Shown: one piece after another, positions 4,908 to 39,480 of the stretch | Layout: each line of letters begins with the position of its first letter | Numbering within the stretch: the first letter of the stretch is position 1 | NCBI GenBank assembly: GCA_964511665.1 | Contig: CAZEHA010000001.1 | Location: forward strand, 24,823 to 88,822 | From: an uncultured Bacteroidales bacterium | GTDB taxonomy: Bacteria > Bacteroidota > Bacteroidia > Bacteroidales > ML635J-15 | Length of the DNA stretch: 64,000 bases | Direction of reading: 5' to 3' | The notes under the pieces: model-generated | Database searches by the model: none | Seen by the model: only the letters and a program-made list of their open reading frames with translations | What the model was told of the DNA's origin: nothing | Position numbers and translations under genes: made by a program

Positions 4908-4936
4908 CTGCCTTCTTTCTGAGGCAGTTTTTTTTA
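4908..4936. terminator. Rho-independent terminator between convergent genes
   Basis: CTGCCT (4908-4913) pairs with AGGCAG (4922-4927), followed by T9. An A-run precedes the hairpin, so it could act in both directions. Confidence 0.65.
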
Positions 4937-4980
4937 TTAATTCTAATCGCTCTACGAATAGAACACAAACAAAGATTTTC

Positions 4981-5709: not shown

Positions 5710-5713
5710 ACTG

Positions 5714-24401: not shown

Positions 24402-25259
24402 ATGAACAAACGGCTGTCGAAATGCATCGAAACATTGCAAGGAATAGTTAAACTATTGTTTTTTTCGAGCTGGAAGAAGAACAGGTTTACAGCAAGTGCC
24501 ACTGAGGTTGTAATACTTGGTAACGGACCTTCGTTGGCATCGATGCTCGAAAACAACTCTCATTTTTTATCAGAAAAAGAGCTAATTGCTGTTAATTATT
24601 TTGCACTTAGCGATGTTTTCTTCTCGCTGAAGCCCCGGCATTATGTTCTGATAGACTTTGCATTTTATCATGAACCCTTCGACGACAACGAAACGCTGGC
24701 AAAGCGAAAAACCATGTGGGAAAACATAGCGCGGGCCAATTGGGAGATTCACCTCTACCTACCCCATTCAGCTAAAAAGCATACCCGATGGCAACAGATT
24801 ATTGGCAACAACAAGCATGTTGATGTACACTATATAAATGTAACCGCCATCGAAGGCTACTCTTGCTTCAGGCACTGGTGCTACAAAAAAATGCTGGGGA
24901 TGCCCCGCCCTCACAATGTTATTGTGCCCGCACTCATGATTGCGCTGAAAATGCAATTCAAAAAAATATACCTGTGGGGCGTCGATCACTCATGGCTTTC
25001 GCAAATTAGCGTTGACGACAACAACCGGGCTTTGGTAAACAACCGGCATTTTTACGACACCAACGGTTCGAAACCATCGCGTTTCATTGTAAAAACACAT
25101 GCCTCGGCACCCTTGCACGTGATATTATATACCATGATGACTGCATTCGAAAGCTATTTTATTATTGCAGAATATGCACGAAAATGCCAATCGCTGATAT
25201 TGAATCAAACCCGCGGAAGTATGATCGATGCTTTTGAGCGCGACTATCTTTCTGAATAA
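24402..25259 (+). CDS. MptE-like/DUF115-type protein (putative glycan-modifying transferase)
   Basis: The VVILGNGPSL motif and length resemble DUF115 (Maf/sialyltransferase-like) proteins. It starts 1 nt after the methyltransferase stop. Confidence 0.4.
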   Translation: MNKRLSKCIETLQGIVKLLFFSSWKKNRFTASATEVVILGNGPSLASMLENNSHFLSEKELIAVNYFALSDVFFSLKPRHYVLIDFAFYHEPFDDNETLAKRKTMWENIARANWEIHLYLPHSAKKHTRWQQIIGNNKHVDVHYINVTAIEGYSCFRHWCYKKMLGMPRPHNVIVPALMIALKMQFKKIYLWGVDHSWLSQISVDDNNRALVNNRHFYDTNGSKPSRFIVKTHASAPLHVILYTMMTAFESYFIIAEYARKCQSLILNQTRGSMIDAFERDYLSE

Positions 25260-25320
25260 AAGTAATACAATAGGGTGCAGAGCAACAGGCATTGTTCGTG
25301 CAATTTTCGTAATTTGCCGA

Positions 25321-25380
25321 TGCAAACATACAACTCACCGATACGCAATAGCTGAGGCAAATTAAGTCATGTATGTTTGC
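25321..25380. promoter_or_regulatory. 11-bp inverted repeat upstream of the LiaF-like/HK/LytTR operon
   Basis: TGCAAACATAC (25321-25331) and GTATGTTTGCA (25370-25380) lie 27 nt upstream of the ATG at 25407. Confidence 0.3.
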
Positions 25381-25406
25381 AGCGTAAACGATAAAACAAA
25401 GAAAAA

Positions 25407-26168
25407 ATGAGAACACATGTTAAAATTCACACCGACTGCAACAACAACAAGAGCCGTTGTTCGTCGTCGAGCCGTAAGAAAGTTACCCTCGGGCTTTTTC
25501 TGGTAGCCGCAGGCATATTGCTTATTCTGGGCCGCAGTGGCCTTATCGAGCCCAAACACATGGAATACATATTCAGCTGGCAATCGCTGCTGGTAGCCTT
25601 AGGAGTACTTTTTCTGATTTCGAACCCCCGTTCGGCGGTTTTCAGCCTAACGCTGATGTTTATAGGCGGCTTTTTTCTGTATTCCGAAATTGTGAACCTT
25701 CCCATAGAAACCCGTAACATTTTCTGGCCGATAATTCTGGTTCTGGTGGGCCTGGTTATGATATTCAAGCGTTTTTCGCACAAAACTCCCAAAAAACCCT
25801 TCGATCATGTAGAGTCGTTTTCCGACGAATATGTCGACAAGAACATAGTATTTGGCGGCTGCAAAACCGTTGTAACATCAAAAAACTTCAGGGGTGGCAG
25901 CATATCGACAGTGTTTGGCGGCTGCGAACTGATTCTTACCGAAGCCGGCCTTGCCGAAGGCGATAATGTGCTGAACATAAACGCAGTGTTTGGCGGCATA
26001 AGTATTGTAGCGCCACGCAGTTGGGATATAGTAATAGAAGTAGATGGCATTATGGGAGGTTTTAAAGACGACCGCAGTTTTGTGAACCCCGACAACATTG
26101 ACCGTAGTCGCAGGCTAATCATAAAAGGGTCGGCAGTGTTTGGTGGCGGCGAAATAAAAAATGTGTAA
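25407..26168 (+). CDS. LiaF-like membrane protein (cell-wall stress module, DUF2154-type C-terminus)
   Basis: Has 4 TM helices, then repeated VFGG motifs (VFGGCELILTEA, NAVFGGISIVAP, SAVFGGGEIKN). Confidence 0.6.
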   Translation: MRTHVKIHTDCNNNKSRCSSSSRKKVTLGLFLVAAGILLILGRSGLIEPKHMEYIFSWQSLLVALGVLFLISNPRSAVFSLTLMFIGGFFLYSEIVNLPIETRNIFWPIILVLVGLVMIFKRFSHKTPKKPFDHVESFSDEYVDKNIVFGGCKTVVTSKNFRGGSISTVFGGCELILTEAGLAEGDNVLNINAVFGGISIVAPRSWDIVIEVDGIMGGFKDDRSFVNPDNIDRSRRLIIKGSAVFGGGEIKNV

Positions 26169-27221
26169 ATGAGTCATCCTTTTTCGAAAAATCGCAGGGT
26201 AATTCTTGCCTATGCCATTTGCTGGCTTCTGGTTTCGGGAGCCCATTTGGCATTGTTGCTCAGCATTGCCCGTGCCGATGTGGCTGTGGCTATCACCGAC
26301 GCGCTGGTGTACAACACCGTGTTTGCCCTTATAGGCATGGCCATATTCTATGCCACGGCTTATACCGGCCTCGACAAACGCTTTGGCGACATTATATTCA
26401 ACCATATTCTGGCTGCCGTTGCTTTTGTTGGCATATGGCTGCTTACGTCGTATCTGCTAAGCGAAATGCTTTTCTCTATTTTCAACATTGCTTCGCCCGA
26501 TAATGCTTCATGGCTCAGGGTGCGCATACCCATTGGGCTGGCTTACTACATAGTGCTTTCGCTGATGTTTTACCTGATTAAAAGCAACGAAACCGGAAAA
26601 GCAGCAAAGCAAGACATTCTGAAAATGGAATCACAGCTTCGCGAAAGTCAGTTGCAGGCTCTTAAATCGCAAATAAACCCACACTTTTTGTTCAACAGCC
26701 TCAACAGTATTTCGTTTTTGGTAAAATCGAATCCCGACAAGGCCCGCGAAATGCTGTCGGTGCTGTCGGAATATTTCCGCTACAGCCTGAAGCAGCAGTC
26801 GAACACGGCCTTACTGGGCGACGAACTGAACCACTGCCGCAAATATCTCGAAATAGAGAAAATACGTTTTGGCAATAAGCTGCTGTGGACCGAAACCATC
26901 GAAAACAACACCGATGCCATTCCGGTTCCGGCCATGATATTGCAACCTATTTACGAAAACGCCGTGAAACATGGTGTTTACGAAAGCGAGATACCCGTAA
27001 GCATCAATACACACATCAGCCTGCACACAGGCTATGCACTTATCGAAATTGAAAACAATTTCGACCCCGAAGCTCCGGTGCGCAAAGGCGAGGGAGTGGG
27101 GTTGAAAAATGCAGGTGAGCGCCTGAAACTCATGTTTGGTGCCGACGACCTGCTCGAAACCTCGATTACCAACAGTGTTTTTACCGTAAAAATTAGCATT
27201 CCAATACCCCGAATAGTATGA
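26169..27221 (+). CDS. Sensor histidine kinase, LytS/YehU family (His_kinase + HATPase)
   Basis: Multi-TM N-terminus. The INPHFLFNSLNSI H-box is followed by ..ENAVKHG.. and ..GVGLKN... The start abuts the previous stop. Confidence 0.8.
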   Translation: MSHPFSKNRRVILAYAICWLLVSGAHLALLLSIARADVAVAITDALVYNTVFALIGMAIFYATAYTGLDKRFGDIIFNHILAAVAFVGIWLLTSYLLSEMLFSIFNIASPDNASWLRVRIPIGLAYYIVLSLMFYLIKSNETGKAAKQDILKMESQLRESQLQALKSQINPHFLFNSLNSISFLVKSNPDKAREMLSVLSEYFRYSLKQQSNTALLGDELNHCRKYLEIEKIRFGNKLLWTETIENNTDAIPVPAMILQPIYENAVKHGVYESEIPVSINTHISLHTGYALIEIENNFDPEAPVRKGEGVGLKNAGERLKLMFGADDLLETSITNSVFTVKISIPIPRIV

Positions 27222-27955
27222 TACGCTGCATTATTATCGACGACGAAGAACCGGCCCGTATGCTTATAGAAGAATATCTTGAAGCACACGGTGATATTGT
27301 GATAGCTGCCCGTTGTGCCAATGGATTCGAAGGCCTGAAAGCCATACACGAGTTGAAACCCGATTTAGTGTTTCTCGACATACAAATGCCCAAGCTTACC
27401 GGATTCGAAATGCTCGAATTGCTCGAACACCACCCGGCCATAGTGTTTACCACCGCCTTCGACACCTATGCCATGAAAGCTTTCGACAACCATGCCATCG
27501 ACTATCTGCTGAAACCGTTTACGCCCGGGCGCTTTGGCGAAGCACTCGAAAAAACCCGAAAAATTTTGTCGGCCAACACGGCAGCCAACAACAACCAATT
27601 GTTTCTGCAAAGCATGAAAGAATCGAAAGAGATGCTTGAACGCATTGTGGTGAAATCGGGTAAAAAAATTAAGGTACTGCCGGTCGATAGTGTGGTTGCA
27701 ATTGAAGCTGCCGACGACTATGTGCTGATACATACCCGCGACGAACAGTTTGTGAAAAGCGACACCATGAATTACTACGAACAGCACTTGCCTGCCAACG
27801 ATTTTATTAGGGTACACCGTTCGTTTCTCGTTGCTGTGTCGTGCATCGAAAGCATGGAAGCCTATACCAAAGAAACCCATGTGCTAAAGATGAGCAACGG
27901 CATGCAAATAAAAACCAGCCGCAGCGGTTCACAAAAACTGCGACAGATGTTGTAA
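27218..27955 (+). CDS. LytTR-family response regulator
   Basis: REC domain (IIIDDE...DLVFLDIQMP) plus a C-terminal LytTR DNA-binding domain (..DDYVLIHT......FIRVHRSF). There is an ATGA overlap with the kinase gene. Confidence 0.85.
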   Translation: MIRCIIIDDEEPARMLIEEYLEAHGDIVIAARCANGFEGLKAIHELKPDLVFLDIQMPKLTGFEMLELLEHHPAIVFTTAFDTYAMKAFDNHAIDYLLKPFTPGRFGEALEKTRKILSANTAANNNQLFLQSMKESKEMLERIVVKSGKKIKVLPVDSVVAIEAADDYVLIHTRDEQFVKSDTMNYYEQHLPANDFIRVHRSFLVAVSCIESMEAYTKETHVLKMSNGMQIKTSRSGSQKLRQML

Positions 27956-27975
27956 TTGAAAATATTGCATTATTC

Positions 27976-28081
27976 AGCCAGCGTGGTGATTCAACAACCG
28001 CAAAACTGAGGACACTGAGGACACTGAGGACACTGAGGCTCTCGAAGTGCCGAAGTGCCGAAGTGTCGAAGTGTCGAAGCG
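27976..28081. repeat. Left composite arm: terminal CAGCCAGCGTGG, then a 9-mer array (ACTGAGGAC x3 + ACTGAGGCT) and an 8-mer array (CGAAGTG-type x5)
   Basis: Read directly from the sequence. 28005-28040 is four 9-mers. 28042-28081 is TCGAAGTG, CCGAAGTG, CCGAAGTG, TCGAAGTG, TCGAAGCG. Confidence 0.9.
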
Positions 28082-28173
28082 ACAAAACAACATAGCGCTG
28101 ATGAAAAGATTTAGCAGCAACTAAATAGTTTTCATTGCTCTTTTCCATCTGGCACCTTATCTCTGTATGCTAT

Positions 28174-28440
28174 TTATAATTCAGGAAGAATATCAGCAAT
28201 TCCATCTATCAATGCTTTTTTCTTTTTTCGACTCCACCCCTGTATTTGTTTCTCACGGATAAATGCTTCATCAATTCGTTGAAATTCTTCAAAATATACT
28301 AATTTCACTGGCAGGTGTTTCTTGGTATAATTTGCTCCCTCACCATTTTGATGTTGTGCTAATCTCATCTCAATATTTTTTGTGCTTCCTGTATAATAAT
28401 TTCCATTTGCACATTCTAAAATATACACAAATCCCTTCAT
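28174..28440 (-). CDS. GIY-YIG nuclease family protein (small UPF0213/YhbQ-like class)
   Basis: 88 aa. Contains GFVYILEC.NG.YYTGST.N...RL.QH and a C-terminal E...K..GWSR.KK pattern. Confidence 0.85.
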   Translation of the reverse strand: MKGFVYILECANGNYYTGSTKNIEMRLAQHQNGEGANYTKKHLPVKLVYFEEFQRIDEAFIREKQIQGWSRKKKKALIDGIADILPEL

Positions 28441-28523
28441 TTTACCGAATATGAATTAACACCATAAAAATAAAAGATTTTATCAACAACAGGTGGCTCT
28501 ATGCATAATTTTCAATCGACGAG

Positions 28524-28628
28524 GGTTCTTCGGACACTGGGGATTCGTAAAAACAATGGTTGCTTCGAGTGCTTCGAGAGCCTCAGCAACCTCAGCAACC
28601 TCAGCAACTTTAGCGTCCACGCTGGCTG
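28524..28628. repeat. Right composite arm (mirror image of the left arm)
   Basis: Contains GCTTCGAG x2 (28562-28579), CCTCAGCAA x3 (28581-28607) and then ..AGCGTCCACGCTGGCTG. One additional plus-oriented unit, GGTTCTTCGGACACTGGGGATTCG, lies at about 28524-28547. Confidence 0.9.
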
Positions 28629-28675
28629 CATAAAAAGCATATTCCAATTCCATATCCCTTTTTTTTGTTTACTTT

Positions 28676-29938
28676 GTGAAAGAATTAAACCATGATGTAG
28701 TGGATAGTTTTGTATTTGTAGTGTGCGGAGCAAAAGCTTTTATTAGCGAATTGAATTTCTCGCTTCGGTTTTTGCGGCACTTCAGTCAACACCGCATTGT
28801 GGTTCTCACCGACAGCCGCCGCAACGAAATTCCCATCGATCACAACGATATCATCGACGTTGAAACCCCACAGCATCTGGCACACCATCAGGCACACCTC
28901 TGGCTCGAAACACGCCTGCCCGAATATATGAACCTGCAAGCCGGCGACCGCTGCTGCTATCTCGACTCGGATGTGGTAGCCATCAACGAAAAGGTAAACC
29001 ACATATTCTCTCACTATCATGCCCCCATCACTGCAGCATACGACCATTGCAGCATCGACTATTTCAGCGTGGGCGTGGTAAATTGCCAATGTCGCAGCGA
29101 ATTCCAAGAGATAGAAGCACAATTTGCCATGATGCTGAACTATTTCCCCAATATTCAACTAAACGAAGCCCACATACAGCAGCAACACGCAATGCTGAAA
29201 TCGGTATTCCGAAAAATGAAATTCAACCCGTTTGCCGATAAATGCAAAGGTATAGGCTACCTAAAAAAACGCTATCTAAAAAAACACAGCGATATAGTGT
29301 TGAACAACCAATTCCGTTTTTCGTTTGCCGACCACTGCTGGCGCAACATGCAAGGCGACATTATCGATTTCGATTACCCCTATTACTACGGCAAACTAAA
29401 GAAAGAGCACGGCATATACATACGCAACGCCAAATGGTTTCACCGCAGCGGCCGCGAACTGGCGCCTGTTACGCCGCATTGCAGCCACCTGCGGCAGTAT
29501 CTGAAAAAAAACTACGCGGTGAGCATTCCCAACAATTGGCAACACCGCAACGGAGGCGTGTTTTTGTTCGGGCACGAATCGAAAGATTTCTTCGCACAAT
29601 GGCACCAATACACCTTGGCCGAAATAGCAAAAGGCTATATTAAACCCTACGACGACCAGGCCACACTGGCCGTGTGCATGTGGCAACAAGGCATCGAAAA
29701 CAGTAATATATTGCCCGAGGACTTCAATTTTATTGCCGACCACGGCAACAAAAGCATTGGGTACTGCAGCACTAGAGGCTATACACGCAATGCTTTTGCC
29801 ACAAGCTGCAAGCCTGCGCTGCTGCATGTGTACAACGAATGGGGAAACCAAAGCTGGGATATCTGGCAATCGGTGTTGGAAACCGGACGAAAAAACGGCA
29901 TATTGCCAACAAACACCAAAAACTACAACAAGCTATGA
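28676..29938 (+). CDS. Uncharacterised DxD-motif protein, probable GT-A-fold (GT8-like) glycosyltransferase; paralog 1
   Basis: Motifs CYLDSDVVAI (DxD), NGGVFLF and DDQATLAV mimic the GT8 order YLDxD / NsGvll / DQD.LN. It is about 40% identical by eye to the next gene. The start is uncertain: GTG at 28676 or GTG at 28700 (VDSFVFVVCG aligns with MKAFVFVVCG of the paralog). Confidence 0.45.
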   Translation: MKELNHDVVDSFVFVVCGAKAFISELNFSLRFLRHFSQHRIVVLTDSRRNEIPIDHNDIIDVETPQHLAHHQAHLWLETRLPEYMNLQAGDRCCYLDSDVVAINEKVNHIFSHYHAPITAAYDHCSIDYFSVGVVNCQCRSEFQEIEAQFAMMLNYFPNIQLNEAHIQQQHAMLKSVFRKMKFNPFADKCKGIGYLKKRYLKKHSDIVLNNQFRFSFADHCWRNMQGDIIDFDYPYYYGKLKKEHGIYIRNAKWFHRSGRELAPVTPHCSHLRQYLKKNYAVSIPNNWQHRNGGVFLFGHESKDFFAQWHQYTLAEIAKGYIKPYDDQATLAVCMWQQGIENSNILPEDFNFIADHGNKSIGYCSTRGYTRNAFATSCKPALLHVYNEWGNQSWDIWQSVLETGRKNGILPTNTKNYNKL

Positions 29939-31146
29939 AAGCATTTGTATTTGTGGTATGCGGAAGCCGCGAGCATGTCGATACGCTGAACTACAGCCTC
30001 AGGTTCATCAGGCACTTCAGCCGCTACCCCATTGTGGTGCTTACCGACCCCAAACGCAACGAAGTTCCCATAGTGCACAACACAATAATTGAAGTAGAAA
30101 CACCCGAACACTTCGACCACCACCAGGCTAGCATATATCTGAAAACCGGAATTCATAAGTTTCTCGACATGGCGCCGGGTAACATGTACTGCTACCTCGA
30201 CAGCGACATAGTAGCCATAAGCCCCGAAATAAACAGCATATTCGACTACTTTGCCGAGCCGATAATTTTTGCGCCCGACCACTGCCTTTTCGACGAATTC
30301 AGTCCCCACGCCATGAACTGCGGATGCCTGGCCGATACCATCAGGCGCAACAATCAATACAAAGAAGTGGATGCATTTTTTGCTCAAGAATTTTTTAAAA
30401 AACCCTGCAACGAAGAAAAAAAACAAGAACTCGACAGTTTGTTTGCTACCATGAACAAGCCGGGCATTACAAACACATTATACCGATTCATCTACGCTTT
30501 CAAACGATATCTGTTGCCTTTTGCATCGTTTCGGTTTGGTAGTTTCGTATTCAGGCGCAACACACGCATGTGGTTTACAGCACAAGGCGAGTATGTGGGT
30601 TTCGATTTCAAATATTATGCCCGCCAGTTGCGCCGCACTACAGGTCTTCATTTCGATGCCGGTACGGCAACATGGTTCAACTCAGCAGGCGAGAACATTA
30701 TGCCACGGGTAGCACAATGCGACCACCTCAGAAAATACTGCCTCGAAAAATACAACTGCAGCATTCCTGCCGATTGGAACCATTGCAACGGAGGCGTGTT
30801 TTTATTCAACCACCGGTCCATCGATTTTCTCGACTACTGGCACCGGCTTACTCTTGAGGAATTTGCCGACCCACGCACAAAAACACGCGACCAGGCTACA
30901 CTGGCCGTAAGCATGTGGAAATTTGGTCTGCAACACACGGCACGCCTAAAAAAAGAGTTTAATTTTATTACCGAATACGACAACACAAACACTGCCTGGC
31001 ATCCCGACAAAGGCTTCACATACAACGGCTTCAACACTGTGTTTACACCCTATTTTTTACACATCTACCACGAGTGGGGCCACAAGGGCTGGAGCATCTG
31101 GGATTATGTGGAGGAGCTGGTGAAGGAGAAACTTATGAAATTGTAA
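29935..31146 (+). CDS. Uncharacterised DxD-motif protein, probable GT-A-fold glycosyltransferase; paralog 2
   Basis: The ATG at 29935 overlaps the TGA of paralog 1 (ATGA). Shared blocks are FVFVVCG, LN.SLRF.RHFS, VVLTD, VETP.H..HHQA, CYLDSD.VAI, NC.C, C.HLR.Y, NGGVFLF, DQATLAV.MW, FNFI and Y.EWG..W.IW. Confidence 0.45.
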   Translation: MKAFVFVVCGSREHVDTLNYSLRFIRHFSRYPIVVLTDPKRNEVPIVHNTIIEVETPEHFDHHQASIYLKTGIHKFLDMAPGNMYCYLDSDIVAISPEINSIFDYFAEPIIFAPDHCLFDEFSPHAMNCGCLADTIRRNNQYKEVDAFFAQEFFKKPCNEEKKQELDSLFATMNKPGITNTLYRFIYAFKRYLLPFASFRFGSFVFRRNTRMWFTAQGEYVGFDFKYYARQLRRTTGLHFDAGTATWFNSAGENIMPRVAQCDHLRKYCLEKYNCSIPADWNHCNGGVFLFNHRSIDFLDYWHRLTLEEFADPRTKTRDQATLAVSMWKFGLQHTARLKKEFNFITEYDNTNTAWHPDKGFTYNGFNTVFTPYFLHIYHEWGHKGWSIWDYVEELVKEKLMKL

Positions 31147-31219
31147 CATTGGCGAAATAAATATTCCGAAGAACACACACAACATTTAAAACGTGGTGTC
31201 AAACAAATAATCTGGAGTC

Positions 31220-32395
31220 TTAGTATGGGGTGCCTGCAATATAGAACTCGATTTTAATTTCAGTTAACAATTTTGTCAAAACTTCTATTCTTTCATTAAC
31301 GGTGTCAATAGGAATTTTATTTTCGATTAAAGCGGAGTCAGAATTCTCTCCTTCATAATATTTAAGTAAAATAACGTGATTAAAATATTTCTGTTTCAGA
31401 ATTCTTTTAATACTGTTAATATCTTCAGTATCCTCGGTCGGAAATCCAATGATGAAATGTGTTTTTAAAAGGAACTTTGCATTAGCATCTCTAAATCTGG
31501 CAATGCATTTTTCAACATCTTCTACATTGTGTTTTCTCTTCATCAGCTTTAAAACTCTATTAGAAGCTGATTGTAGAGGCATCACTATTTCAACAATTGT
31601 TTTATTCTTAATATATTTAAGGAATGTATCTTGGTATTTTATTGCCCACATAGGGTGTAAGTTATCAATAACCCAACAGACCTTCCCAATTTTCAATTGT
31701 TCCTCGATATTATAACAGTAATCCAATAGGGTTTCAAAAGTTTGCCCACAATCAATCCCAAATGCACCTGTATCGTCGGCATTAAAAATGATCATATCAA
31801 ATCCATCTTCCCTCATTTTCTTGTAATTTCTACCTAAGTTCTCTAAAGAATAGCTCTTTACGGGACCTAAAGCTCTTCTCATTGTACAATAACTACAATT
31901 GTTATTACAGCCCTTGCTACTAATTAGAAGTGCCGGCTTCCTTTTAACTCTTTTGAAAATATTTTTTCGATCATATCTTTCAAACTGATTTAAATAGTAA
32001 TTACCGTATTGGTATTCTTTGTTAAATTCTGATGGTAATGGAATTTCGTTGAATTTAATTTTAAAATTTGGGAAAAGTGTATCGATTAAGTTTTCTAAAT
32101 CCTTTGTTGGAATCATTTCAAAACCAAATCTTTCCCTGAGTAAGTTTGGACTGATGCCTGGAGAACATCCAAGCAGTAGAATTCTTTTTCCTTTTCCTAA
32201 AATGGACTCAACAAAAGTTAAGGTTGATGCTTCAGTTTCGTCTACGACAGAACAAGTGAAAACAGAGACTACATTAGCCTCTTGAAGTGACGATTCTTTG
32301 TAACCATTAATAATAAAATAATCTTTTAACCGTTGCGCCTCAATTGCTCTCATCGGGCATCCTAATATTTCAATATAAAACTTTTGACACTCCAT
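31220..32395 (-). CDS. Radical SAM enzyme of the MiaB/RimO methylthiotransferase family, lacking a TRAM domain
   Basis: The N-terminal UPF0004-like domain has three Cys (LGCPMR, FTCSV, LLGCSP). The radical SAM site is GCNNNCSYC (CX3CX2C). The protein is 391 aa and ends right after the core, leaving no room for the ~60-aa TRAM domain. Confidence 0.65.
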   Translation of the reverse strand: MECQKFYIEILGCPMRAIEAQRLKDYFIINGYKESSLQEANVVSVFTCSVVDETEASTLTFVESILGKGKRILLLGCSPGISPNLLRERFGFEMIPTKDLENLIDTLFPNFKIKFNEIPLPSEFNKEYQYGNYYLNQFERYDRKNIFKRVKRKPALLISSKGCNNNCSYCTMRRALGPVKSYSLENLGRNYKKMREDGFDMIIFNADDTGAFGIDCGQTFETLLDYCYNIEEQLKIGKVCWVIDNLHPMWAIKYQDTFLKYIKNKTIVEIVMPLQSASNRVLKLMKRKHNVEDVEKCIARFRDANAKFLLKTHFIIGFPTEDTEDINSIKRILKQKYFNHVILLKYYEGENSDSALIENKIPIDTVNERIEVLTKLLTEIKIEFYIAGTPY

Positions 32396-32397
32396 AT

Positions 32398-33660
32398 CTA
32401 TTTTTTATTTATTTCCCAGGCCATAATTGGGTTTAATGGTCCAGGAAATGCATCTAACTTTGAAAATATCTGATGTTCTCTCATTTTTAAGTTATCTATC
32501 ATAAGAAAAGAAAATGCTGATTTTATATGTAAAGTTTCAAAATTTTCTTCGCAAGAAATAAAAACATCTGCGCTATATTCATTTGTATTGAAGAGAAATT
32601 TAGGAAATTCGACCGACACACTGTATTCACCTGACTCTTTAATATAAACTTGATCGGCGCTTGATTGTAAGGAATTGGTTGAAAGAAATACAAATCCCAT
32701 GTGAGCAAGATTAACACTTATATTAATTTTGAATTTGTCATTAAACTTCTGAAAAATAAAATCTATTTTAAAGTCTTTTTCCAATTCGATTGCACCTTCT
32801 GGAATTTTTCCATCTTGTGTTACCCCTATGCTAATAATTGAAACACCCATAGGAATAAGAGTTTCATTAATTCGTAATATATCCTTTGGGCTTAATTGCT
32901 TTGAATTTCTGACTATTTGGTGGGTTTCAATGCTTTTTAAATACATTGATATTGTTTGATTTATGTTTCCATTTGAAGAAATTTTACCATTTTCAAGATA
33001 AACAACCTTACTACAAAGTTGCATTATATCGTTTAAGTTATGACTTACAATAATTATTGTTTTTTTTGCAGAAAGCAATTCTAATATTTTTTTTGAGCTT
33101 TTTTGTTGAAAGGCACTATCCCCTACATTTAAAGCTTCGTCAAAAAGCATAATATCGGCATCAATATTAGAAACGAGAGAGAATGCCAATCTGATAAACA
33201 TTCCACTGGAGTAGTGTTTTACAGGAGTATCAATAAAATCGCCTATTTCACTAAATTCAACAATATGCTTAAATCGCTTTTGAATATGCTCTTTATTAAA
33301 ACCCAACAAACTTCCACTAAGAAACACATTTTCTCTACCTGTTAGGTCTGGGTGAAATCCCAGTCCGATTTCTAGGACCGATGCAATGCTTCCAAAAATT
33401 TCAACTTTTCCCGCAGTAGGTTTCGTAATTCCACTTAATATTTTCAGCAATGTACTTTTCCCTGCCCCATTAGGACCAATGATTCCCAAAGATTCTCCTT
33501 TTAAAATTTCTAAAGAAATACCTTCCAGCGCCCAAAACTTTTTTTTGTTTTTAATGTGCAGCAAACCAGTTAATGTAGTGACTTTATTAGTATCAACAAT
33601 CATGTATTGTTTTGAAACACCTGAAATCTTTATTGCAATATTTGAGTTTAGATTTTTCAA
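32398..33660 (-). CDS. Polysaccharide/O-antigen ABC exporter ATPase (Wzt/TagH type) with a ~170-aa C-terminal extension
   Basis: Contains WALEGISLEILKGESLGIIGPNGAGKSTLLK, YSSGMFIRLAFS and MLFDEALNVGDSAFQQK, the typical Wzt/KpsT/TagH signature. The C-terminal beta-rich domain is plausibly a Wzt_C-like glycan-binding module. Confidence 0.8.
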   Translation of the reverse strand: MKNLNSNIAIKISGVSKQYMIVDTNKVTTLTGLLHIKNKKKFWALEGISLEILKGESLGIIGPNGAGKSTLLKILSGITKPTAGKVEIFGSIASVLEIGLGFHPDLTGRENVFLSGSLLGFNKEHIQKRFKHIVEFSEIGDFIDTPVKHYSSGMFIRLAFSLVSNIDADIMLFDEALNVGDSAFQQKSSKKILELLSAKKTIIIVSHNLNDIMQLCSKVVYLENGKISSNGNINQTISMYLKSIETHQIVRNSKQLSPKDILRINETLIPMGVSIISIGVTQDGKIPEGAIELEKDFKIDFIFQKFNDKFKINISVNLAHMGFVFLSTNSLQSSADQVYIKESGEYSVSVEFPKFLFNTNEYSADVFISCEENFETLHIKSAFSFLMIDNLKMREHQIFSKLDAFPGPLNPIMAWEINKK

Positions 33661-34535
33661 ATTAAGTCAGCAATTTTATGTTCAATTTTCTTGAAGTAAA
33701 CAATCCCACTAATAAACAAAATTAATACAGGAATAAAACCAAGTAAATAACGAATATTGGGAACTGCCGAATTTGTAATTGACCATCTCAAACATTCTAA
33801 AACACCTGCCATTGGATTAAAATAAAGGAAAAAATTATATTCCTCAGGAATCATTGTTCCAGGGTAAAAAACAGGAGTAACAAACATACCAAAACCTATT
33901 ATATAGGGGATTATTTGAAAAAAGTCTCGATATCTTATACTGAGCGCGCTGACCCAAAATGTAATTGACAAACCAGTAACAAGTAACATAACAACAATTA
34001 AAGGAAGCATTAAAATATTCACCGTAACAGGAATTTGGTAAAATATCATTAAAACAATTATAATACTAAACCACACCATCAATTCAAACAAACTAACCAA
34101 TGCCTTAGACATGGGCAAAGCAATCTTTGGAAATGCTAGTTTTCTTATCAGATGTTGAGCATTTAATAGAGCCATACCTCCAAAACCTGTGAGATAACTA
34201 AAATTATACCATGCCATTAGGCCAATGCTACAAAAAATGATGTACGGTACTTCTCCAGTAGTAATATGCAGTAAATGACCAAAAAACAGGGTGAAAACAA
34301 TTATACTAACAAAAGCCTGCACATAACTCAGCAAGGGTCCTAGCAAAGTTTGAGCATATCGGCTCTTGAGTTCAATACGAGCAAAAAAGACAATTATCCT
34401 AAAATCGGATACCAAGTTCCTAATATAACACGTAAAAGACACTGGGGTGCTGTCATAAATAATATGATTGTTTTTTTCTTTCATTCTTTCAATCAAGAAA
34501 TGTAAAAATAACATTTTTTTGCGTTCATTTACCAA
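33657..34535 (-). CDS. ABC-2 type polysaccharide exporter permease (Wzm)
   Basis: Six TM helices, with ELKSRYAQTLLGPLLSYVQ typical of the Wzm/TagG N-terminus. There is a 4-nt overlap with wzt. The true start may be an internal Met (MLFLHF or MKEKNN). Confidence 0.75.
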   Translation of the reverse strand: MVNERKKMLFLHFLIERMKEKNNHIIYDSTPVSFTCYIRNLVSDFRIIVFFARIELKSRYAQTLLGPLLSYVQAFVSIIVFTLFFGHLLHITTGEVPYIIFCSIGLMAWYNFSYLTGFGGMALLNAQHLIRKLAFPKIALPMSKALVSLFELMVWFSIIIVLMIFYQIPVTVNILMLPLIVVMLLVTGLSITFWVSALSIRYRDFFQIIPYIIGFGMFVTPVFYPGTMIPEEYNFFLYFNPMAGVLECLRWSITNSAVPNIRYLLGFIPVLILFISGIVYFKKIEHKIADLI

Positions 34536-34637
34536 GATTTACTTCATAATTATTAAGAGGATCATGCAGTTAGATAATCCTCGAAAAACCATGTCTGAAT
34601 AAAGTAAGATAATACTTCATTTTGAATTCTCCCCCCC

Positions 34638-36068
34638 CTACTCCCCCATCACCCCCAAAATAAGTAGAGGTACATCGGTGTTGTCGATAAAGCGGCCAAA
34701 CACTTCGGCGCCTTTGCCTGCGGCAAACACCGGCACAGGGCTGGCTGTGTGGTAGTAGGTGCTGAACCCGATTCCGGCGCGCCGGGCTACAATACGAACG
34801 GCTTCGGCTGCTATGGCCTGGTTGCCGCCATACAATTCGCGCTCTTCGGCTTCGCTCAATTTGGTTTTTCCGGTAGCGTAGTTGTAGGCCGCTTGCAGTG
34901 CCTGCGTTTCGGCAGAACTAAGCTGTACATTTTCGGCAAAAAAATGCTTGCGTAAAAACTGCAACACCGCATCGAAACTATCGCCACGCTGCAACATGGT
35001 TTTCAGTTGCAATTCGGCATATCCTGCCGACATACGCTGCATGTCGAGATGCTGCAGGTGCAAATCGTATTCATACAAACTCATTCCCGGCGACAAGCCT
35101 CCGGTTTCGTGGTCAGAAGTAACCACAATCAAGGTTTCGTCGGGGTGTTTCTTCATAAATTCGAGCGCAACGCCTATGGCCTTGTCGAAATCGATAACTT
35201 CGTGAACTATTGAGGCGGCATCGTTGTAGTGTGCCGCCCAGTCGATAAGGCCGCTTTCGGCCATAATAAAAAAACCGTTGTCGCCATACAAGGCAGCAAT
35301 GGCAGCCTCAAGCAAATGGCTCATGCTATACCCGCCCAGCCTTGCGCGGTCGATACTCAGCGGCATTTCCGATTCGCTCAGCAGCACTTTGTTTATAAGA
35401 ATGCTTTTGTTCGAATAGGCATGCTTCTTTACATCCACCGAATCGCCAATCAGGCTGTAACCGTTGCGCGCAGCAATATCGAGCAAACTTTCCATATCGT
35501 TGTTGCGCCCTGTGTTATAGCGGAAGCCACCACCTGCAAAAAACGGAAAACCGCTTTCGCAGAGTTGCCGGCCTATATCGTAATAGCTGTTACGCTTATC
35601 GGAATGGGCATAAAAAGCAGCCGGAGTGGCGTGGTCGATGCTCACGGTGCTAACTATACCAACCGGGTAGCCTTTTTTGTGAAGTTTGCTAGCTATCGAC
35701 TCGAGGTCGGTCGATTTGTCGGAGCTTTTGCCAAGCACTCCAAATGCGGTTTTTTCACCGCTTGCCAAGGCCGTGCCGGCAGCAGCGCTGCATGTAATCA
35801 GATTGTTGTGGCAATAGGTGCGACACAGCCCCACCACCGGCAAGCTGCTCATAGCCAAAGGCTTCATCAGCGTATCGCCGGCGTTCAGGCCAAGATATGC
35901 CTCGGTAAGAGCCACATGAGTCAGCCCCATGCCATCGCCAATAAACAAAAACACATATTTAATTTTTGGCGCTTCGTCGGGTTGTTTTGCAGTGCACGAA
36001 GCCAAGCAAACCATGCCGATAGAAATAAGGGCAATAATTGCAAAAAAATGTTTTCGGGTTGTTTTCAT
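34638..36068 (-). CDS. Alkaline phosphatase (PhoA family), lipoprotein
   Basis: The start is at the ATG at 36068 (MKTTRKHFFAIIALISIGMVCLASC). Contains FIGDGMG, the SAAAGTALASG active-site region, and DWAAH....SDHETGG metal ligands. Confidence 0.85.
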   Translation of the reverse strand: MKTTRKHFFAIIALISIGMVCLASCTAKQPDEAPKIKYVFLFIGDGMGLTHVALTEAYLGLNAGDTLMKPLAMSSLPVVGLCRTYCHNNLITCSAAAGTALASGEKTAFGVLGKSSDKSTDLESIASKLHKKGYPVGIVSTVSIDHATPAAFYAHSDKRNSYYDIGRQLCESGFPFFAGGGFRYNTGRNNDMESLLDIAARNGYSLIGDSVDVKKHAYSNKSILINKVLLSESEMPLSIDRARLGGYSMSHLLEAAIAALYGDNGFFIMAESGLIDWAAHYNDAASIVHEVIDFDKAIGVALEFMKKHPDETLIVVTSDHETGGLSPGMSLYEYDLHLQHLDMQRMSAGYAELQLKTMLQRGDSFDAVLQFLRKHFFAENVQLSSAETQALQAAYNYATGKTKLSEAEERELYGGNQAIAAEAVRIVARRAGIGFSTYYHTASPVPVFAAGKGAEVFGRFIDNTDVPLLILGVMGE

Positions 36069-36168
36069 CAATCTCGCTCTTTGTTCATTGCAAATGTAAC
36101 TGATTTGGCCATGGTTTGTTGCCAAAAGCTTACTTTTTAAACAAAACATAACATTGCAGGTCTAATAT

Positions 36169-36250
36169 GCAACAAGCGTCCATGCATATGCAGCAAGCGT
36201 CCACGCTTGCTGCGAATCACCCTCTCATGAAGCAAGCACCACGCTTGCTG
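36169..36250. repeat. Three tandem copies of an AGCAAGCG-TCCA-CGCTTGCT-type hairpin module
   Basis: 36190-36213 is GCAGCAAGCG-TCCA-CGCTTGCTGC, a perfect 10-bp stem. 36231-36249 is AGCAAGC-ACCAC-GCTTGCT. A degenerate copy, CAACAAGCGTCCATGCA, lies at about 36170. The core is related to AGCGTCCACGCTGGCTG at 28612-28628. Confidence 0.85.
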
Positions 36251-36288
36251 CCCTGGCACAAGCCAACAGATGAAAAAATCAGCATATA

Positions 36289-36370
36289 GATACATTATGG
36301 ATATTTAAATAAAAAACATTATATTTGTATGGATAAATTATGGATACATTATGGATAAATATTTAAATAA
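36289..36370 (+). repeat. ~25-bp direct repeat duplicating the fic start-codon region
   Basis: GATACATTATGGATATTTAAATAAA (36289-36313) matches GATACATTATGGATAAATATTTAAATAAA (36343-36370). The second copy contains the fic ATG at 36351. Confidence 0.8.
36320..36327 (+). promoter_or_regulatory. -7 box TATATTTG for fic
   Basis: Matches TAnnTTTG, 24 nt upstream of the ATG at 36351. Confidence 0.4.
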
Positions 36371-37421
36371 ATTAAACTTTGACTTCCACACTAATCAGTT
36401 GATTATAAAATCAATAAGCTTCATTGACTCTTTCAAAGGAAAATGGAATGTTGTAGAAAGCAAAGAAAATATCTTTCTTAAAGAATTAAGGAAAATCGCC
36501 ACCATTGAAAGTATTGGGTCCTCAACTAGAATTGAAGGGGCTCAGCTAACCAACGAAGAGATAAAACAACTCCTCGATAATGTAAAAATAACAGAGTTAA
36601 AATCAAGGGATGAACAAGAAGTGGTGGGTTATTATGATGTGCTCGAAATTATCAATGAGAACTATGATAACATTAGCATATCGAAAAACTATATTCAACA
36701 ATTGCATCAGAATTTATTAAAGTATAGCACTAAAGATGATAGACATAGGGGAATTTACAAAAATTTGTCAAATAAAGTTGTTGCAAAATATCCCGATGGT
36801 ACCCAAAGGGTAATTTTTGACACAACTGAGCCTCACCTTGTTGAAAGTGAAACGAACTACCTGTTTGAGTGGATAAATGAACAGTTTAATTCAAAATCGC
36901 TTCACCCTTTAATTGTTATTGGATTATTTATTTATGAATTTTTATCGATACATCCCTTTCATGACGGGAATGGAAGGTTGTCAAGATTATTAACAAATCT
37001 CTTGCTACTTAAAAACGACTACGTATTCATTAAATATGTATCGTTTGAAAACTTAATTGAGCAGAAAAAAAAGACCTACTATGAAGCACTAATGGATGGA
37101 CAAAAGGATAGAAATTCTGAAAAAGAAAGAGTTGACAAATGGATGCTTTTCTTTTTACAATCCCTTGAAGCGTTAATCCACCGGTTGGAACAAAAATATG
37201 ATGTATTTAAAACTAAAGGTGGTTATCTGAATGAAAGACAAAAGAAAATAAAAGAATTTATAACAATCAATCAACCAATTAAATTATCTGACTTAATGAA
37301 CAGTATGCCCGATATTTCGATAAACACGCTAAAGAAAGATCTACAGTATATGAAGAATGAGCAAATAATTTTATCGATTGGCAAAAACAAGGGAACTATT
37401 TATGTATTGAACGACAATTAA
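36351..37421 (+). CDS. Fic family protein (class II, with an intramolecular inhibitory helix; probable AMP-transferase) and a C-terminal wHTH-like region
   Basis: The canonical Fic motif HPFHDGNGRLSR is present. An upstream STRIEG matches the inhibitory motif [ST]xxxE[GN]. The gene is AT-rich. Confidence 0.85.
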   Translation: MDKYLNKLNFDFHTNQLIIKSISFIDSFKGKWNVVESKENIFLKELRKIATIESIGSSTRIEGAQLTNEEIKQLLDNVKITELKSRDEQEVVGYYDVLEIINENYDNISISKNYIQQLHQNLLKYSTKDDRHRGIYKNLSNKVVAKYPDGTQRVIFDTTEPHLVESETNYLFEWINEQFNSKSLHPLIVIGLFIYEFLSIHPFHDGNGRLSRLLTNLLLLKNDYVFIKYVSFENLIEQKKKTYYEALMDGQKDRNSEKERVDKWMLFFLQSLEALIHRLEQKYDVFKTKGGYLNERQKKIKEFITINQPIKLSDLMNSMPDISINTLKKDLQYMKNEQIILSIGKNKGTIYVLNDN

Positions 37422-37463
37422 GCACGTGCCCTGACATGGGGAGTAGCCAATGCCCCTTCTGCA

Positions 37464-37508
37464 TTCGGGCACTGAGGTTCTTTCGGGCACTGAGGTTCTC
37501 GAAGTGCC
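37464..37508 (+). repeat. Direct repeat TTCGGGCACTGAGGTTC x2 followed by TCGAAGTGCC
   Basis: Copies lie at 37464-37480 and 37482-37498, then 37499-37508. These are the same CACTGAGG / CGAAGTGCC words as the arms around the GIY-YIG gene. Confidence 0.85.
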
Positions 37509-37580
37509 CCTCCCCCTCCAAGCCACCGGCACACAACTCGTAGCTAATTTGGGGCTAATATTTTACACTTCACTCTCGCT

Positions 37581-37670
37581 CCGAGTCACCGACACGGGAC
37601 TCGGAGCTAATTATGGCGAAGGCTTTAAGGAATACGCTTACACCCGAGTCCTCTGCGAGTGACTCGGGTG
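37581..37670. repeat. Two GC-rich hairpins sharing a CCGAGTC/GACTCGG core
   Basis: CCGAGTC (37581-37587) pairs with GACTCGG (37598-37604). CACCCGAGTC (37641-37650) pairs with GACTCGGGTG (37661-37670), a 10-bp stem with a 10-nt loop. Confidence 0.8.
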
Positions 37671-37751
37671 GGGACAGCGATCATATTCCACTCGTTTTCC
37701 GGTTGAGCTTGCGAAACTCCCACTATCATCCTGCCGGCAAAAAATTCTGTA

Positions 37752-37845
37752 TTCATTCGCGCATTCGCGGCCACCAAAAAGTTGAGCCCGCGAAACAAAA
37801 AAACTTCATTCGCGCATTCGCGGCCATCAAAACACTTAAGCCCGC
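37752..37845 (+). repeat. ~41-bp imperfect direct repeat (TTCATTCGCGCATTCGCGGCCAyCAAAA...AGCCCGC) x2
   Basis: Copies start at 37752 and 37805. The first 22 nt are identical and the remainder is similar with one indel. Confidence 0.8.
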
Positions 37846-37975
37846 ACCATAGCTGCAACCCCATCAAACCGAAAAGCCTTCCCAAAAAACCACATTACCA
37901 ATCACAAAAAAGCTGTTTCGCAGAATATCACTCTTTTTTTGAGCATCAAATACATCAGAATTGCCCGCAGTTTGT

Positions 37976-37983
37976 TATTTTTG
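37976..37983 (+). promoter_or_regulatory. -7 box TATTTTTG for cysS
   Basis: Matches TAnnTTTG, 25 nt upstream of the ATG at 38008. Confidence 0.4.
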
Positions 37984-38007
37984 GGGTTTCTTTTAAAACA
38001 AAACATC

Positions 38008-39480
38008 ATGAGCCTCGAGCATTCGCTGTATATTTACAACACCCTGAACCGAAAGAAAGAATTGTTTGTTCCGCTTCACACGCCCCATGTAGGCATGTAT
38101 GTGTGCGGCCCCACCGTGTATGGCGATGCCCATCTGGGGCATGCCCGCCCGGCGATTAACTTCGATTTACTCTTTCGTTTTCTGAAATATTCGGGCTACA
38201 AAGTTCGCTATGTGCGCAATATTACCGATGTGGGTCATCTCGAAAACGATGCCGACGATGGCGAAGACAAAATTGCCAAAAAGGCTCGCCTCGAAGCACT
38301 CGAGCCTATGGAAGTGGTGCAATATTACACCGACCGCTACCACATAAACATGGATGCGCTCAACGTGTTGCGCCCCAGCATCGAGCCCAGGGCATCGGGG
38401 CATATCATCGAACAAATCGAGCTCACAAAACGCATTATCGACAACGGATATGCATACGTGTTAAACGGCTCGGTATATTTCGACGTAGATGCTTTCAATA
38501 AAAAATTTAACTACGGCCGTTTGTCGGGTCGCGTAATCGAAGACCTGTATAGCACTACCCGTGAACTCGACGGCCAAAGCGAAAAACGCAAGAGCTACGA
38601 TTTTGCCTTATGGAAAAAAGCCGCGCCATCGCACATTATGCACTGGCCCTCGCCATGGAGCGAAGGCTTTCCGGGATGGCACATGGAATGCTCGGCCATG
38701 GGGATGAAATATCTCGGCGAAGAATTCGATATACACGGAGGCGGCATGGACTTGCTGTTTCCGCACCACGAATGCGAAGTGGCGCAAAGTGCTGCTGCTT
38801 TGGGTAAAGACACCGTGCGCTACTGGATGCACAACAACATGATAACCATAAACGGACAAAAAATGGGCAAGTCGCTGGGCAACTTTATTACCCTCGACGA
38901 AGTGTTCGGCGGTAAGCACGAATTGTTGGCTCAAGCCTACAGCCCCATGACCGTTCGGTTTTTCATACTGATGGCGCACTACCGCGGCACACTCGACTTT
39001 TCGAACGAAGCCCTGCAGGCTGCCGAAAAAGGGCTGAACCGCTTACTCAAAGGAATGGCCTTACTGCAAAAAATCAATGCTTCGGCCCAAACATCACACT
39101 TTAAACCCGAAGCATTCGAAACAAAACTAAAAGATGCACTTAACGACGACCTGAACAGCCCTGTGCTGATAGCTCACCTCTTCGACGGACTAAAAAGCAT
39201 CAACAATATAAATCAGGGTAGCGAAACCATCAGCGAAAGCGACCTCAACAGTTTGAAAAAGATATATCACACCTACGTTACCGATATTTTGGGCTTGCTG
39301 CCACAAGAAGAAAACAATCAGGAAATACTAAAAAACCTGGTTGATATGGTACTCAATATCCGCCTCGAGGCCAAACGAAACAAAGACTTTGCCCTTTCCG
39401 ACACCATCAGAAACCGGCTCGGTGAGTTGGGCATTGCGGTGCGCGACAGCAAAGACGGCTTTGAATGGGAAATACAATAA
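38008..39480 (+). CDS. cysS: Cysteine--tRNA ligase
   Basis: Has the HIGH motif ([10 protein letters not shown]), KMSKS as KMGKSLGN, and [19 protein letters not shown]. The start is set at [12 protein letters not shown]. Confidence 0.9.

Follow-up and report, generated by a model that had tools for sequence, protein, structure and literature searches.

The closest described counterpart of the locus reported here is the Ssn/SRM system of Neisseria. SsnA of Neisseria meningitidis, a single-domain GIY-YIG protein of 94 aa belonging to CDD family cd10448, binds a hairpin repeat designated NTS and cuts single-stranded DNA just upstream of it. Cleavage is restricted to one strand; duplex DNA and RNA are left uncut, and RNA is not bound (PMC11893778). 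In NTS, the prototype of the Ssn-related motifs (SRM), conservation lies in the stem and in a 5′ GTC tag, and the loop is not required. Genes for Ssn homologues are flanked by SRMs in 71% of cases, and the NTS-ssnA-NTS layout was likened by the authors to insertion sequences and to the repetitive extragenic palindrome (REP)/RAYT systems (PMC11893778). Here we describe a stand-alone gene for an 88-aa GIY-YIG nuclease that lies between two mirrored, hairpin-forming repeat arms within a 64-kb stretch of DNA (64,000 nt; hereafter the window) from an uncultured Bacteroidales bacterium (contig CAZEHA010000001.1, positions 24,823 to 88,822). We consider it probable, at roughly two chances in three, that this locus pairs a nuclease with its cognate hairpin in a module of the Ssn/SRM type. 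An earlier note on the same DNA, written from the sequence alone, had described small GIY-YIG proteins as having no established role, a statement that is outdated now that the Ssn family is known to cut single-stranded DNA beside its flanking hairpins (PMC11893778).

A clade of nuclease genes and its hairpin unit

In agreement with the earlier note, the only credible open reading frame (ORF) between the arms is the one encoding the GIY-YIG protein (Table 1). Its catalytic residues are intact, as an alignment in which SsnA and YazA are included shows no variation at Y6, Y16, G18, R26, H30 and E63. The gene is present in one copy in the window. A homologue search returned 5173 proteins at E <= 1e-5. 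The closest relatives outside the protein's own clade are an alphaproteobacterial group with 49-50% identity, and a viral contig collection searched with the window protein yielded no relatives.

We compared 80 homologous loci, whose proteins are 67-83% identical to the window protein and which derive from Bacteroidota and at least eight other phyla. Tandem-repeat analysis revealed that most of these loci carry, beside the gene, arrays composed of the words TTCGA and CTCAG. When aligned, the units form a hairpin in which a variable but complementary stem of 5-9 bp surrounds the conserved sequence C-TTCGA-N-NN-N-CTCA-G. The covariation score of the stem is 0.426, versus 0.113 +/- 0.011 for shuffled controls (0 of 500 reach the observed value) and 0.06-0.11 when the partners are slid. 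Covarying pair 9-25 occurs as CG 38 times, as GC 30 times and as AU 15 times, and the covarying inner pair as CG, GC and UA 41, 38 and 8 times, respectively. Mismatches of the G.T type (24) are no more common in the stems than A.C mismatches (40), and thus there is no sign that the pairing takes place in an RNA strand.

A covariance model (R1) based on 90 units, all of them from other organisms, yields exactly three significant matches in the window, corresponding to the two arms and to a solo unit. Each arm is therefore a single hairpin unit. The left-arm unit is located downstream of the GIY-YIG gene and is forward relative to it, and the right-arm unit is located upstream and is reversed. 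The micro-tandem repeats that give the arms their length are derived from the two halves of this unit: the 8-mers repeat the "5′ stem plus TTCG" half, and the 9-mers repeat the "CTCA plus 3′ stem" half. Replication slippage presumably expanded these halves into the 8- and 9-nt runs, and half-unit expansions are likewise found in several other loci (L045, L049, L076 and L079).

Analysis with Tandem Repeats Finder (TRF) recovers the module order of the left arm that had been described previously, with an 18-nt spacer (given before as ~17 nt) followed by (ACTGAGGAC)x3.8 at 28005-28038 and then (CGAAGTGC)x4.6 at 28043-28079. The first of these micro-tandems is in register with the left-arm unit found by the covariance model, and the second, folded as single-stranded DNA, adopts staggered alternative stems (-14.2 kcal/mol, z -2.5). 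The right-arm modules, (TGCTTCGAG)x2 and (CCTCAGCAA)x3.1, are also present as claimed, except that the period of the TTCGAG-containing repeat (TGCTTCGAG) is 9 rather than 8. Common to both arms, in mirror orientation, is CTGAGGCTCTCGAAG (33 nt at 82%), and CTGAGGNNNCTGAGG occurs six times where 0.07 occurrences are expected.

The hairpin is closely associated with this clade of genes. Matches to R1 lie beside the gene in at least 72 of the 80 homologous loci, distributed over many phyla, which upholds the proposal that the arms belong with the GIY-YIG gene family. Of the 300 matches listed (of 308), none falls in a control locus; the controls were Neisseria ssnA, yazA of B. subtilis, two relatives from Alphaproteobacteria and a more distant version of the window's locus (L101). 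Across the 80 loci, copies of the exact core TTCGA-N4-CTCAG cluster within about 300 bp on either side of the gene and are nearly absent farther out. Relative to the gene, the closest unit on the downstream side points forward in 35 of 44 loci, and the closest one upstream is reversed in 23 of 35. The mirrored layout seen in the window (upstream reversed, downstream forward) is the most common one, accounting for 16 of the 30 loci that have an exact-core unit on both sides. Units adjoin the stop codon so tightly that the annotated proteins of many homologues run on into them, with tails such as FDKL.., FENLS.. and LSLSKG. Within a locus, the inner-pair type tends to be uniform (0.96 versus 0.76 when shuffled).

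The converse does not hold. Among 80 metagenome loci picked solely for containing a unit, which typically carry one or two of them, a GIY-YIG homologue is present in three. In 41 of these loci the sequence extends for at least 1 kb to either side, and no homologue lies within 1 kb in any of them. The units are mostly solo and dispersed, which does not support the earlier interpretation of the arms as part of a nuclease cassette. Given the gene-centered count (at least 72/80) and the motif-centered count (3/80), we conclude that the hairpin is a dispersed repeat among whose copies the gene is nearly always found. RAYT genes stand in the same relation to REPs, and ssnA to the NTS repeats.

Such dispersal is also expected if the units, together with the REPs described below, are host repeats that spread by other means and at which GIY-YIG genes merely accumulate, without the hairpin being a substrate of the enzyme. 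Yet the hairpin family stays with one clade of proteins in phyla that have nothing else in common in their genomes, and the matches listed include none next to the genes for SsnA, YazA or the alphaproteobacterial relatives. The non-random orientation of the units, most evident for the nearest downstream one, and a proximity to the stop codon that leads homologues to read through into them, are likewise difficult to reconcile with genes that simply land among host repeats. We return to this explanation below, where the variation at the site itself provides further points in its favor.

Alternatively, the repeats might act as RNA, either as terminators or stabilizers of the GIY-YIG transcript or as a repeat RNA holding the nuclease in check in the manner of type III toxin-antitoxin systems. 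A small nuclease gene is indeed directly adjoined by tandem arrays of 18-45 nt, the stems covary, and units lie within about 50 nt of the gene start and stop. We nonetheless judge an RNA role to be very improbable. Units are found either way round and flank the gene on both sides, most copies lie a long way from any gene of this kind, and the stems have no excess of G.U over A.C mismatches. A search of positions 27000-39000 against Rfam at E <= 1 returned nothing relevant, and a promoter and terminator scan detected no terminator-like site and only weak sigma-70-like matches (4 versus a shuffle expectation of 2.3). Moreover, SsnA shows no RNA binding (PMC11893778).

Some individual homologous loci can be noted here. 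In L038 (33-6259), the GIY-YIG homologue and its units are situated between ORFs that by eye resemble hsdR and hsdS, with an hsdM-like ORF further downstream, and in L058 (2989-4677) the homologue lies just upstream of an ORF that by eye resembles hsdS. A contig binned as a Methanomethylophilaceae archaeon (L049; CAVERO010000152.1) carries a 70% identical GIY-YIG gene with micro-tandem arms much like those of the window, and its archaeal assignment reflects either a binning error or a transfer across domains.

A REP cluster with alternative occupants

The GIY-YIG gene resides in a cluster of REPs and other hairpins between a LytTR operon and two unannotated genes. Through the closest homologue (83% identity) of the 412-aa gene downstream, we reached the orthologous locus in a close relative (L108/L109). 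By blastn, the window is collinear with L108 on both sides of the cassette, with positions 24888-27986 corresponding to 920-4023 of L108 and positions 28612-31120 to 4914-7421, each at 90.6% nucleotide identity. The segments between these blocks are unrelated: the window has the 625-bp cassette, and L108 has 890 bp that hold seven palindromic REP copies, GCAGCCAGCGT-SS-ACGCTGGCTGC, and a Y1 transposase-like gene. This gene is immediately downstream of the orthologous LytTR response-regulator gene and is accompanied by its own palindromic repeats. The predicted presence/absence polymorphism is thereby established, although it takes the form of a replacement and not of a clean empty site. It agrees with the low G+C content of the GIY-YIG gene (0.32, versus 0.46 in the flanks). 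Consistent with the AT-rich interior noted previously, values of 0.32-0.34 extend across positions 28100-28500, compared with 0.45-0.50 on either side. Family-wide, the gene has a G+C content of 0.37 +/- 0.04, and that of the host flanks spans 0.28 to 0.54.

Comparison with L108 also identifies the origin of the outermost inverted repeat. As had been reported, the outer 12 nt are perfect inverted copies: CAGCCAGCGTGG on the left has an exact reverse complement on the right, and with the flanks included the repeat extends to 17 nt at 94%. All of the elements listed in the earlier note are present, but the actual start lies one base before the one that it gave. Both breakpoints of the cassette fall inside REPs, with CAGCCAGCGTGG at the left and AGCGT-CC-ACGCTGGCTGC at the right, and the 12-nt copies are consequently halves of two REPs of an unrelated repeat family. 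REP hairpins of this family also occur in several copies in L108, which is without the gene, and the 12-nt copies do not define the ends of a unit. Matches to CAGCCAGCGTGG with at most one mismatch number five in the window (0.11 expected), and the right-hand REP portion, 28612-28629, agrees at 17 of 18 positions with 36196-36213, within a complete REP hairpin of the window. Two partial REP copies accompany the complete one at 36160-36260, between the alkaline phosphatase and Fic genes, and the family is the same as in L108. The outer inverted repeat was also considered as a trait of the GIY-YIG family as a whole and was rejected, as the longest inverted repeat between upstream and downstream flanks, once the units were masked, did no better than in mismatched locus pairs (4 of 73 loci versus 4.2% in controls).

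One unit of the GIY type is retained in L108 (4796-4829; 25.4 bits), at the place taken by the right arm in the window. It has the unexpanded form TGCTTCGAGTGCCTCAGCAAC, with the same stem and core as the window's right arm, and it is nested in the loop of a REP, in the order GCAGCCAGCGTGG, TGCTTCGAGTGCCTCAGCAAC, TAAGCTGGCTGC; folded as single-stranded DNA, this composite reaches -16.6 kcal/mol (z -5.2). Both the L108 unit and the window cassette begin directly after AGCGTGG. The earlier note had named arms at the orthologous locus of a gene-less relative as an outcome that would refute its proposal, and L108 presents this outcome, with one arm-type unit.

Additional relatives provide partial views of the same site. 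The contig of L100, which has a 97% identical response regulator, breaks off at GCAGACAGCGTC, 30 nt past the regulator gene; this sequence resembles a REP in the other orientation and suggests a third haplotype. In L101, which is more distant (regulator 64% identical), a Y1 transposase gene with its own palindromic repeats lies directly downstream of the regulator (7060-7497). A search of the window for a Y1_Tnp homologue found none. The site is thus a fast-changing hairpin-repeat cluster in which the GIY-YIG module and a RAYT-like module are alternative occupants.

These observations bear on two explanations that differ from the one we prefer. In the first, the gene and its arms would constitute an autonomous miniature mobile element that moves as a unit, with the arms, including the 12-nt ends, serving as terminal inverted repeats cut by the nuclease. 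The absence of the cassette from a relative at 90.6% nucleotide identity, the deviant G+C content of the gene, and the occurrence of 67-83% identical proteins with the same flanking hairpins in many phyla would all be compatible with such an element, as would the prevalence of mirrored arms and the fact that both the cassette and the solo unit of L108 start right after AGCGTGG in a REP loop. However, the 12-nt ends are REP halves that L108 has as well, and an outer inverted repeat is no more frequent at other loci than chance predicts. No clear target-site duplication is found at the locus, the only candidate, AGCGT, being part of the REP itself, and one arm stays at the site without the gene in L108, where the polymorphism is a replacement. 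Strand-transfer activity is not known for GIY-YIG enzymes. We therefore regard this element as improbable. Nor is the proposal of a self-propagating nuclease cassette supported, since we found no clear target-site duplication, no transposase and, within the 64 kb, no second copy of the gene.

The second explanation is the one introduced above, in which GIY-YIG genes accumulate at repeats that they do not act upon. The variability of the REP-cluster site between close relatives, with a Y1 gene in place of the cassette in L108 and one directly after the regulator in L101, adds to its appeal, as does the persistence of a unit without the gene in L108. The related proposal that the site is a recombination hot spot fits in that the REP cluster differs between the two relatives seen whole. 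Set against the clade-specific distribution and the orientation of the hairpins, these points leave accumulation at host repeats an unlikely account of the locus as a whole.

Table 1. Positions of the GIY-YIG cassette, its hairpin units and the associated repeats (window coordinates except where L108 is named)
Feature	Position	Strand	Length	Basis and remarks
GIY-YIG nuclease gene, stand-alone	28174-28440	-	88 aa	Pfam PF01541, 6e-20, residues 2-74
Cassette without counterpart in close relative (spacer, left arm, GIY-YIG gene, AT-rich upstream region, right arm)	27987-28611		625 bp	blastn against L108
Left-arm hairpin unit, GGCAC-TTCGAGAGCCTCA-GTGTC	28023-28056	-		R1 32.7 bits, E 3.6e-8; exact core TTCGAGAGCCTCAG
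Right-arm hairpin unit, GGTTGC...TTCGAGAGCCTCA-GCAACC	28563-28596	+		R1 30.7 bits, E 1.7e-7; exact core present
Solo hairpin unit, 9 kb from the GIY-YIG gene	37480-37513	-		R1 35.5 bits, E 4.6e-9; top match in window
Hairpin unit sequence GGGCAC-TTCGAGAACCTCA-GTGCCC				named alongside the two arm units
Left-arm micro-tandem (ACTGAGGAC)n, on the minus strand (GTCCTCAGT)n	28005-28040	-		TRF: period 9, 3.8 copies, 100% matches
Left-arm micro-tandem (CGAAGTGC)n, on the minus strand (GCACTTCG)n	28043-28082	-		TRF: period 8, 4.6 copies, 96% matches
Right-arm micro-tandem (TGCTTCGAG)x2	28561-28578	+		TRF
Right-arm micro-tandem (CCTCAGCAA)x3.1	28581-28608	+		TRF
AT-rich region upstream of the GIY-YIG gene, presumed promoter and leader	28441-28560	-		sequence
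REP 5′ half with GG loop (left 12-nt copy), outside the cassette	27975-27986	+		L108 homology ends at 27986; full REPs there in L108
REP 3′ part AGCGT-CC-ACGCTGGCTGC, holding the right 12-nt copy (28617-28628)	28612-28629	+		L108 homology resumes inside its last REP, GCAGTCAGCGTCCACGCTGGCTGC
Complete REP hairpin GCAGCAAGCGT-CC-ACGCTTGCTGC, of the family behind the outer 12-nt repeat	36190-36213	+		
Y1 transposase-like gene of L108 (IS200-like, RAYT-like)	L108: 4210-4734	-	174 aa	Pfam Y1_Tnp 28.1 bits (cut-off 23); NHIHLI, YIHQNPV

Comparison with Ssn/SRM and other systems

The locus has several features in common with Ssn/SRM. Both involve a single-domain GIY-YIG protein of about 90 aa (88 aa here, below the 150-aa limit used for Ssn), with the catalytic Tyr, Tyr, Arg, His and Glu in common, and both protein families are spread over many phyla. 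In each case hairpin-forming repeats stand on both sides of the gene in a repeat-gene-repeat layout, and many copies of the same repeats are dispersed in the genome. The gonococcal SsnA orthologue (L096:1501-1782, on a chromosome filed among plasmids), which has canonical NTS repeats on its flanks, is 33% identical to the window protein, with 80 of 94 residues aligned at 45.8 bits. The corresponding E value is about 1e-6 for a proteome-sized search, as estimated from the bit score, and the value returned by tblastn against the plasmid collection was 5e-4.

By analogy with SsnA, the 88-aa enzyme would most likely recognize the C-TTCGA-N4-CTCA-G hairpin, with its variable closing stem, in single-stranded DNA. 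The hairpin could become single-stranded during, for example, replication, DNA uptake or repair, and the enzyme may then cut at the hairpin or next to it. The gene is placed between two mirrored hairpins, each with its TTCGA side toward the gene, and the arms are single units whose halves were duplicated in tandem. The hairpin itself is a dispersed REP-like repeat, most copies of which are solo, including the one 9 kb away. The module, whether a newcomer or the older occupant, lies inside a cluster of the unrelated REP family, with REP halves at both breakpoints, and the gene may persist, and move among hairpin-bearing sites, by host recombination or repair instead of a transposase-like reaction. 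We treat the locus as one that would work like Ssn/SRM, judging from sequence, and not the window protein as a demonstrated member of Ssn.

Several observations weigh against this interpretation. The published definition of Ssn is based on BLASTP matches to Neisseria SsnA in a proteome search at E <= 1e-10 and at least 75% query cover (PMC11893778), and the E value estimated for the window protein from 45.8 bits falls short of that threshold. UPF0213 proteins are somewhat closer to the window protein (36-40% identity) than SsnA is (33%). The published SRM pattern, HGTCWYN(0-2)YYVSBRHN(0-5)WNVSBRGN(0-2)RNCYNB, has no match in the window and two in all 80 loci, compared with nine in a 3.2-kb Neisseria control, and hence the arms are not canonical SRMs. 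In the window hairpin a 15-nt loop is conserved and the stem varies, which is the opposite of NTS, with its conserved stem and 5′ tag, and so the mode of recognition may differ. Protein and hairpin subtype gave no indication of co-evolution, as protein identity within and between inner-pair types was 0.623 versus 0.607 (p = 0.12), and that candidate relationship was rejected. Finally, the persistence of a unit without the gene in L108 means that proximity alone is no proof of a cognate pair. The half-unit micro-tandem expansions, for their part, are a feature of the window system that is unlike Ssn/SRM.

The best matches among solved structures are UPF0213 proteins, namely BH0048 (PDB 1ZG2; 4.1e-14) and EF2693 (PDB 1YWL; 4.6e-10). 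Together with B. subtilis YazA and E. coli YhbQ, these resemble the window protein in size and in having a single domain. Structures are thus available for UPF0213, but we know of no established function for the family. The genomic settings differ: yazA lies between trmNF and rsmI, with no units among the matches listed (one B. subtilis record), whereas the window gene is in a repeat cluster, has a composition unlike its flanks and lacks a repeat-free housekeeping context.

The locus resembles REP/REPIN-RAYT systems in that a single gene has inverted hairpin repeats on its two sides, in that these repeats are dispersed and for the most part solo or clustered, and in that the hairpins are presumably recognized in single-stranded DNA. 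In L108 the identical site is even occupied by a RAYT-like gene together with REPs of its own. The window enzyme is, however, a GIY-YIG protein and not an HUH tyrosine transposase, for which reason covalent strand transfer is not expected, and the hairpin family is a different one. The GIY-YIG homing endonucleases, such as I-TevI and the Seg proteins, resemble it in their catalytic domain and in occupying different sites in different genomes, but the window protein, at 88 aa, is without a DNA-binding domain and its gene is in neither an intron nor a phage gene. Against the NCBIfam group I intron endonuclease model TIGR01453 it scores 24.4 bits, relative to a cut-off of 56. An insertion sequence or miniature inverted-repeat transposable element was also considered and rejected, as there are no element-specific terminal inverted repeats (the REP halves are in L108 too) and no clear target-site duplication.

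The general principle, a small GIY-YIG nuclease with flanking hairpins, was published in 2025 (PMC11893778). The hairpin family appears to be new, as do the clade of proteins associated with it and an architecture in which the loop is conserved. For this particular site, the head-to-head exchange with a RAYT-like module within a REP cluster likewise appears new. A literature search for the hairpin core sequences found no paper containing them, and a search combining GIY-YIG with RAYT/REPIN terms gave no relevant paper with both among the matches listed. Among the GIY-YIG papers found, that of Chenal et al. alone links the domain to hairpin repeats.

Neighboring features and implications

The solo unit belongs to an intergenic mosaic (37440-37700) in which it is joined by two further hairpin repeats, GCTCCGAGTCACCGACACGGGACTCGGAGC and CCCGAGTCCTCTGCGAGTGACTCGGG. 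This combination recurs in unrelated metagenome contigs (L145:1-420 and L132:4400-4620), in the former directly after what by eye is an apparent 5S rRNA gene, and it looks like a composite element, similar to a bacterial interspersed mosaic element (BIME), that is common to different organisms. The same intergenic region, upstream of cysS, also has two copies, 53 bp apart (37754-37822), of CATTCGCGCATTCGCGGCCA followed by an A-rich stretch. Downstream of the cassette, positions 28676-31146 carry a pair of neighboring paralogues, called as 412 and 403 aa on the source contigs (longest ORFs, 420 and 435 aa). Neither has a Pfam domain. Homologues of the 412-aa protein number in the hundreds, several of them annotated as Bacteroidales, and its 90% cluster is confined to the same population. 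The earlier note's name for the two, a glycan gene pair, finds neither support nor contradiction in these results.

Gene callers report on public contigs a 56-aa ORF on the minus strand at 28483-28653. It is a translation of the right arm (VAEVAEVAEALEALEA) and almost certainly spurious. Three contigs of the same organism (L002, L007 and L015) end inside the micro-tandem arrays; our guess is that arrays of this length defeat a short assembly k-mer. Three others from JGI and Logan (L011, L012 and L107) terminate within the 5′ end of the GIY-YIG gene or slightly upstream of it, a hint that the community contains a paralogue or a strain variant.

A broader reading, which we advance tentatively and hold to be possible without being the likelier outcome, is that these loci represent a second large nuclease-hairpin partnership beside Ssn/SRM. 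Here a UPF0213-like clade would read the conserved loop and leave the stem free to vary, the enzyme would create, spread or police the dispersed hairpin, and units, together with the gene, might enter the loops of other single-stranded hairpins. The last of these ideas comes from the unit of L108 and the cassette of the window, both of which start directly after AGCGTGG in a REP loop. If this reading is correct, the clade would supply new natural cutters of single-stranded DNA with specificity for a loop sequence, and it would explain a very common class of intergenic repeat together with the spurious ORFs that contain it.

More generally, if the enzyme does cut its hairpin, the site-specific single-stranded-DNA nucleases recognized in 2025 would extend to a second clade with thousands of members and a different recognition logic, in which the loop is conserved and the stem is free. 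Relatives of UPF0213 would thereby gain a function that can be tested. On a practical level, intergenic hairpins of this kind break short-read assemblies and inflate gene calls through read-through tails and spurious ORFs. At the site itself, two unrelated hairpin-plus-enzyme systems, one GIY-YIG and the other RAYT-like, swap at a single intergenic position in near-identical genomes.

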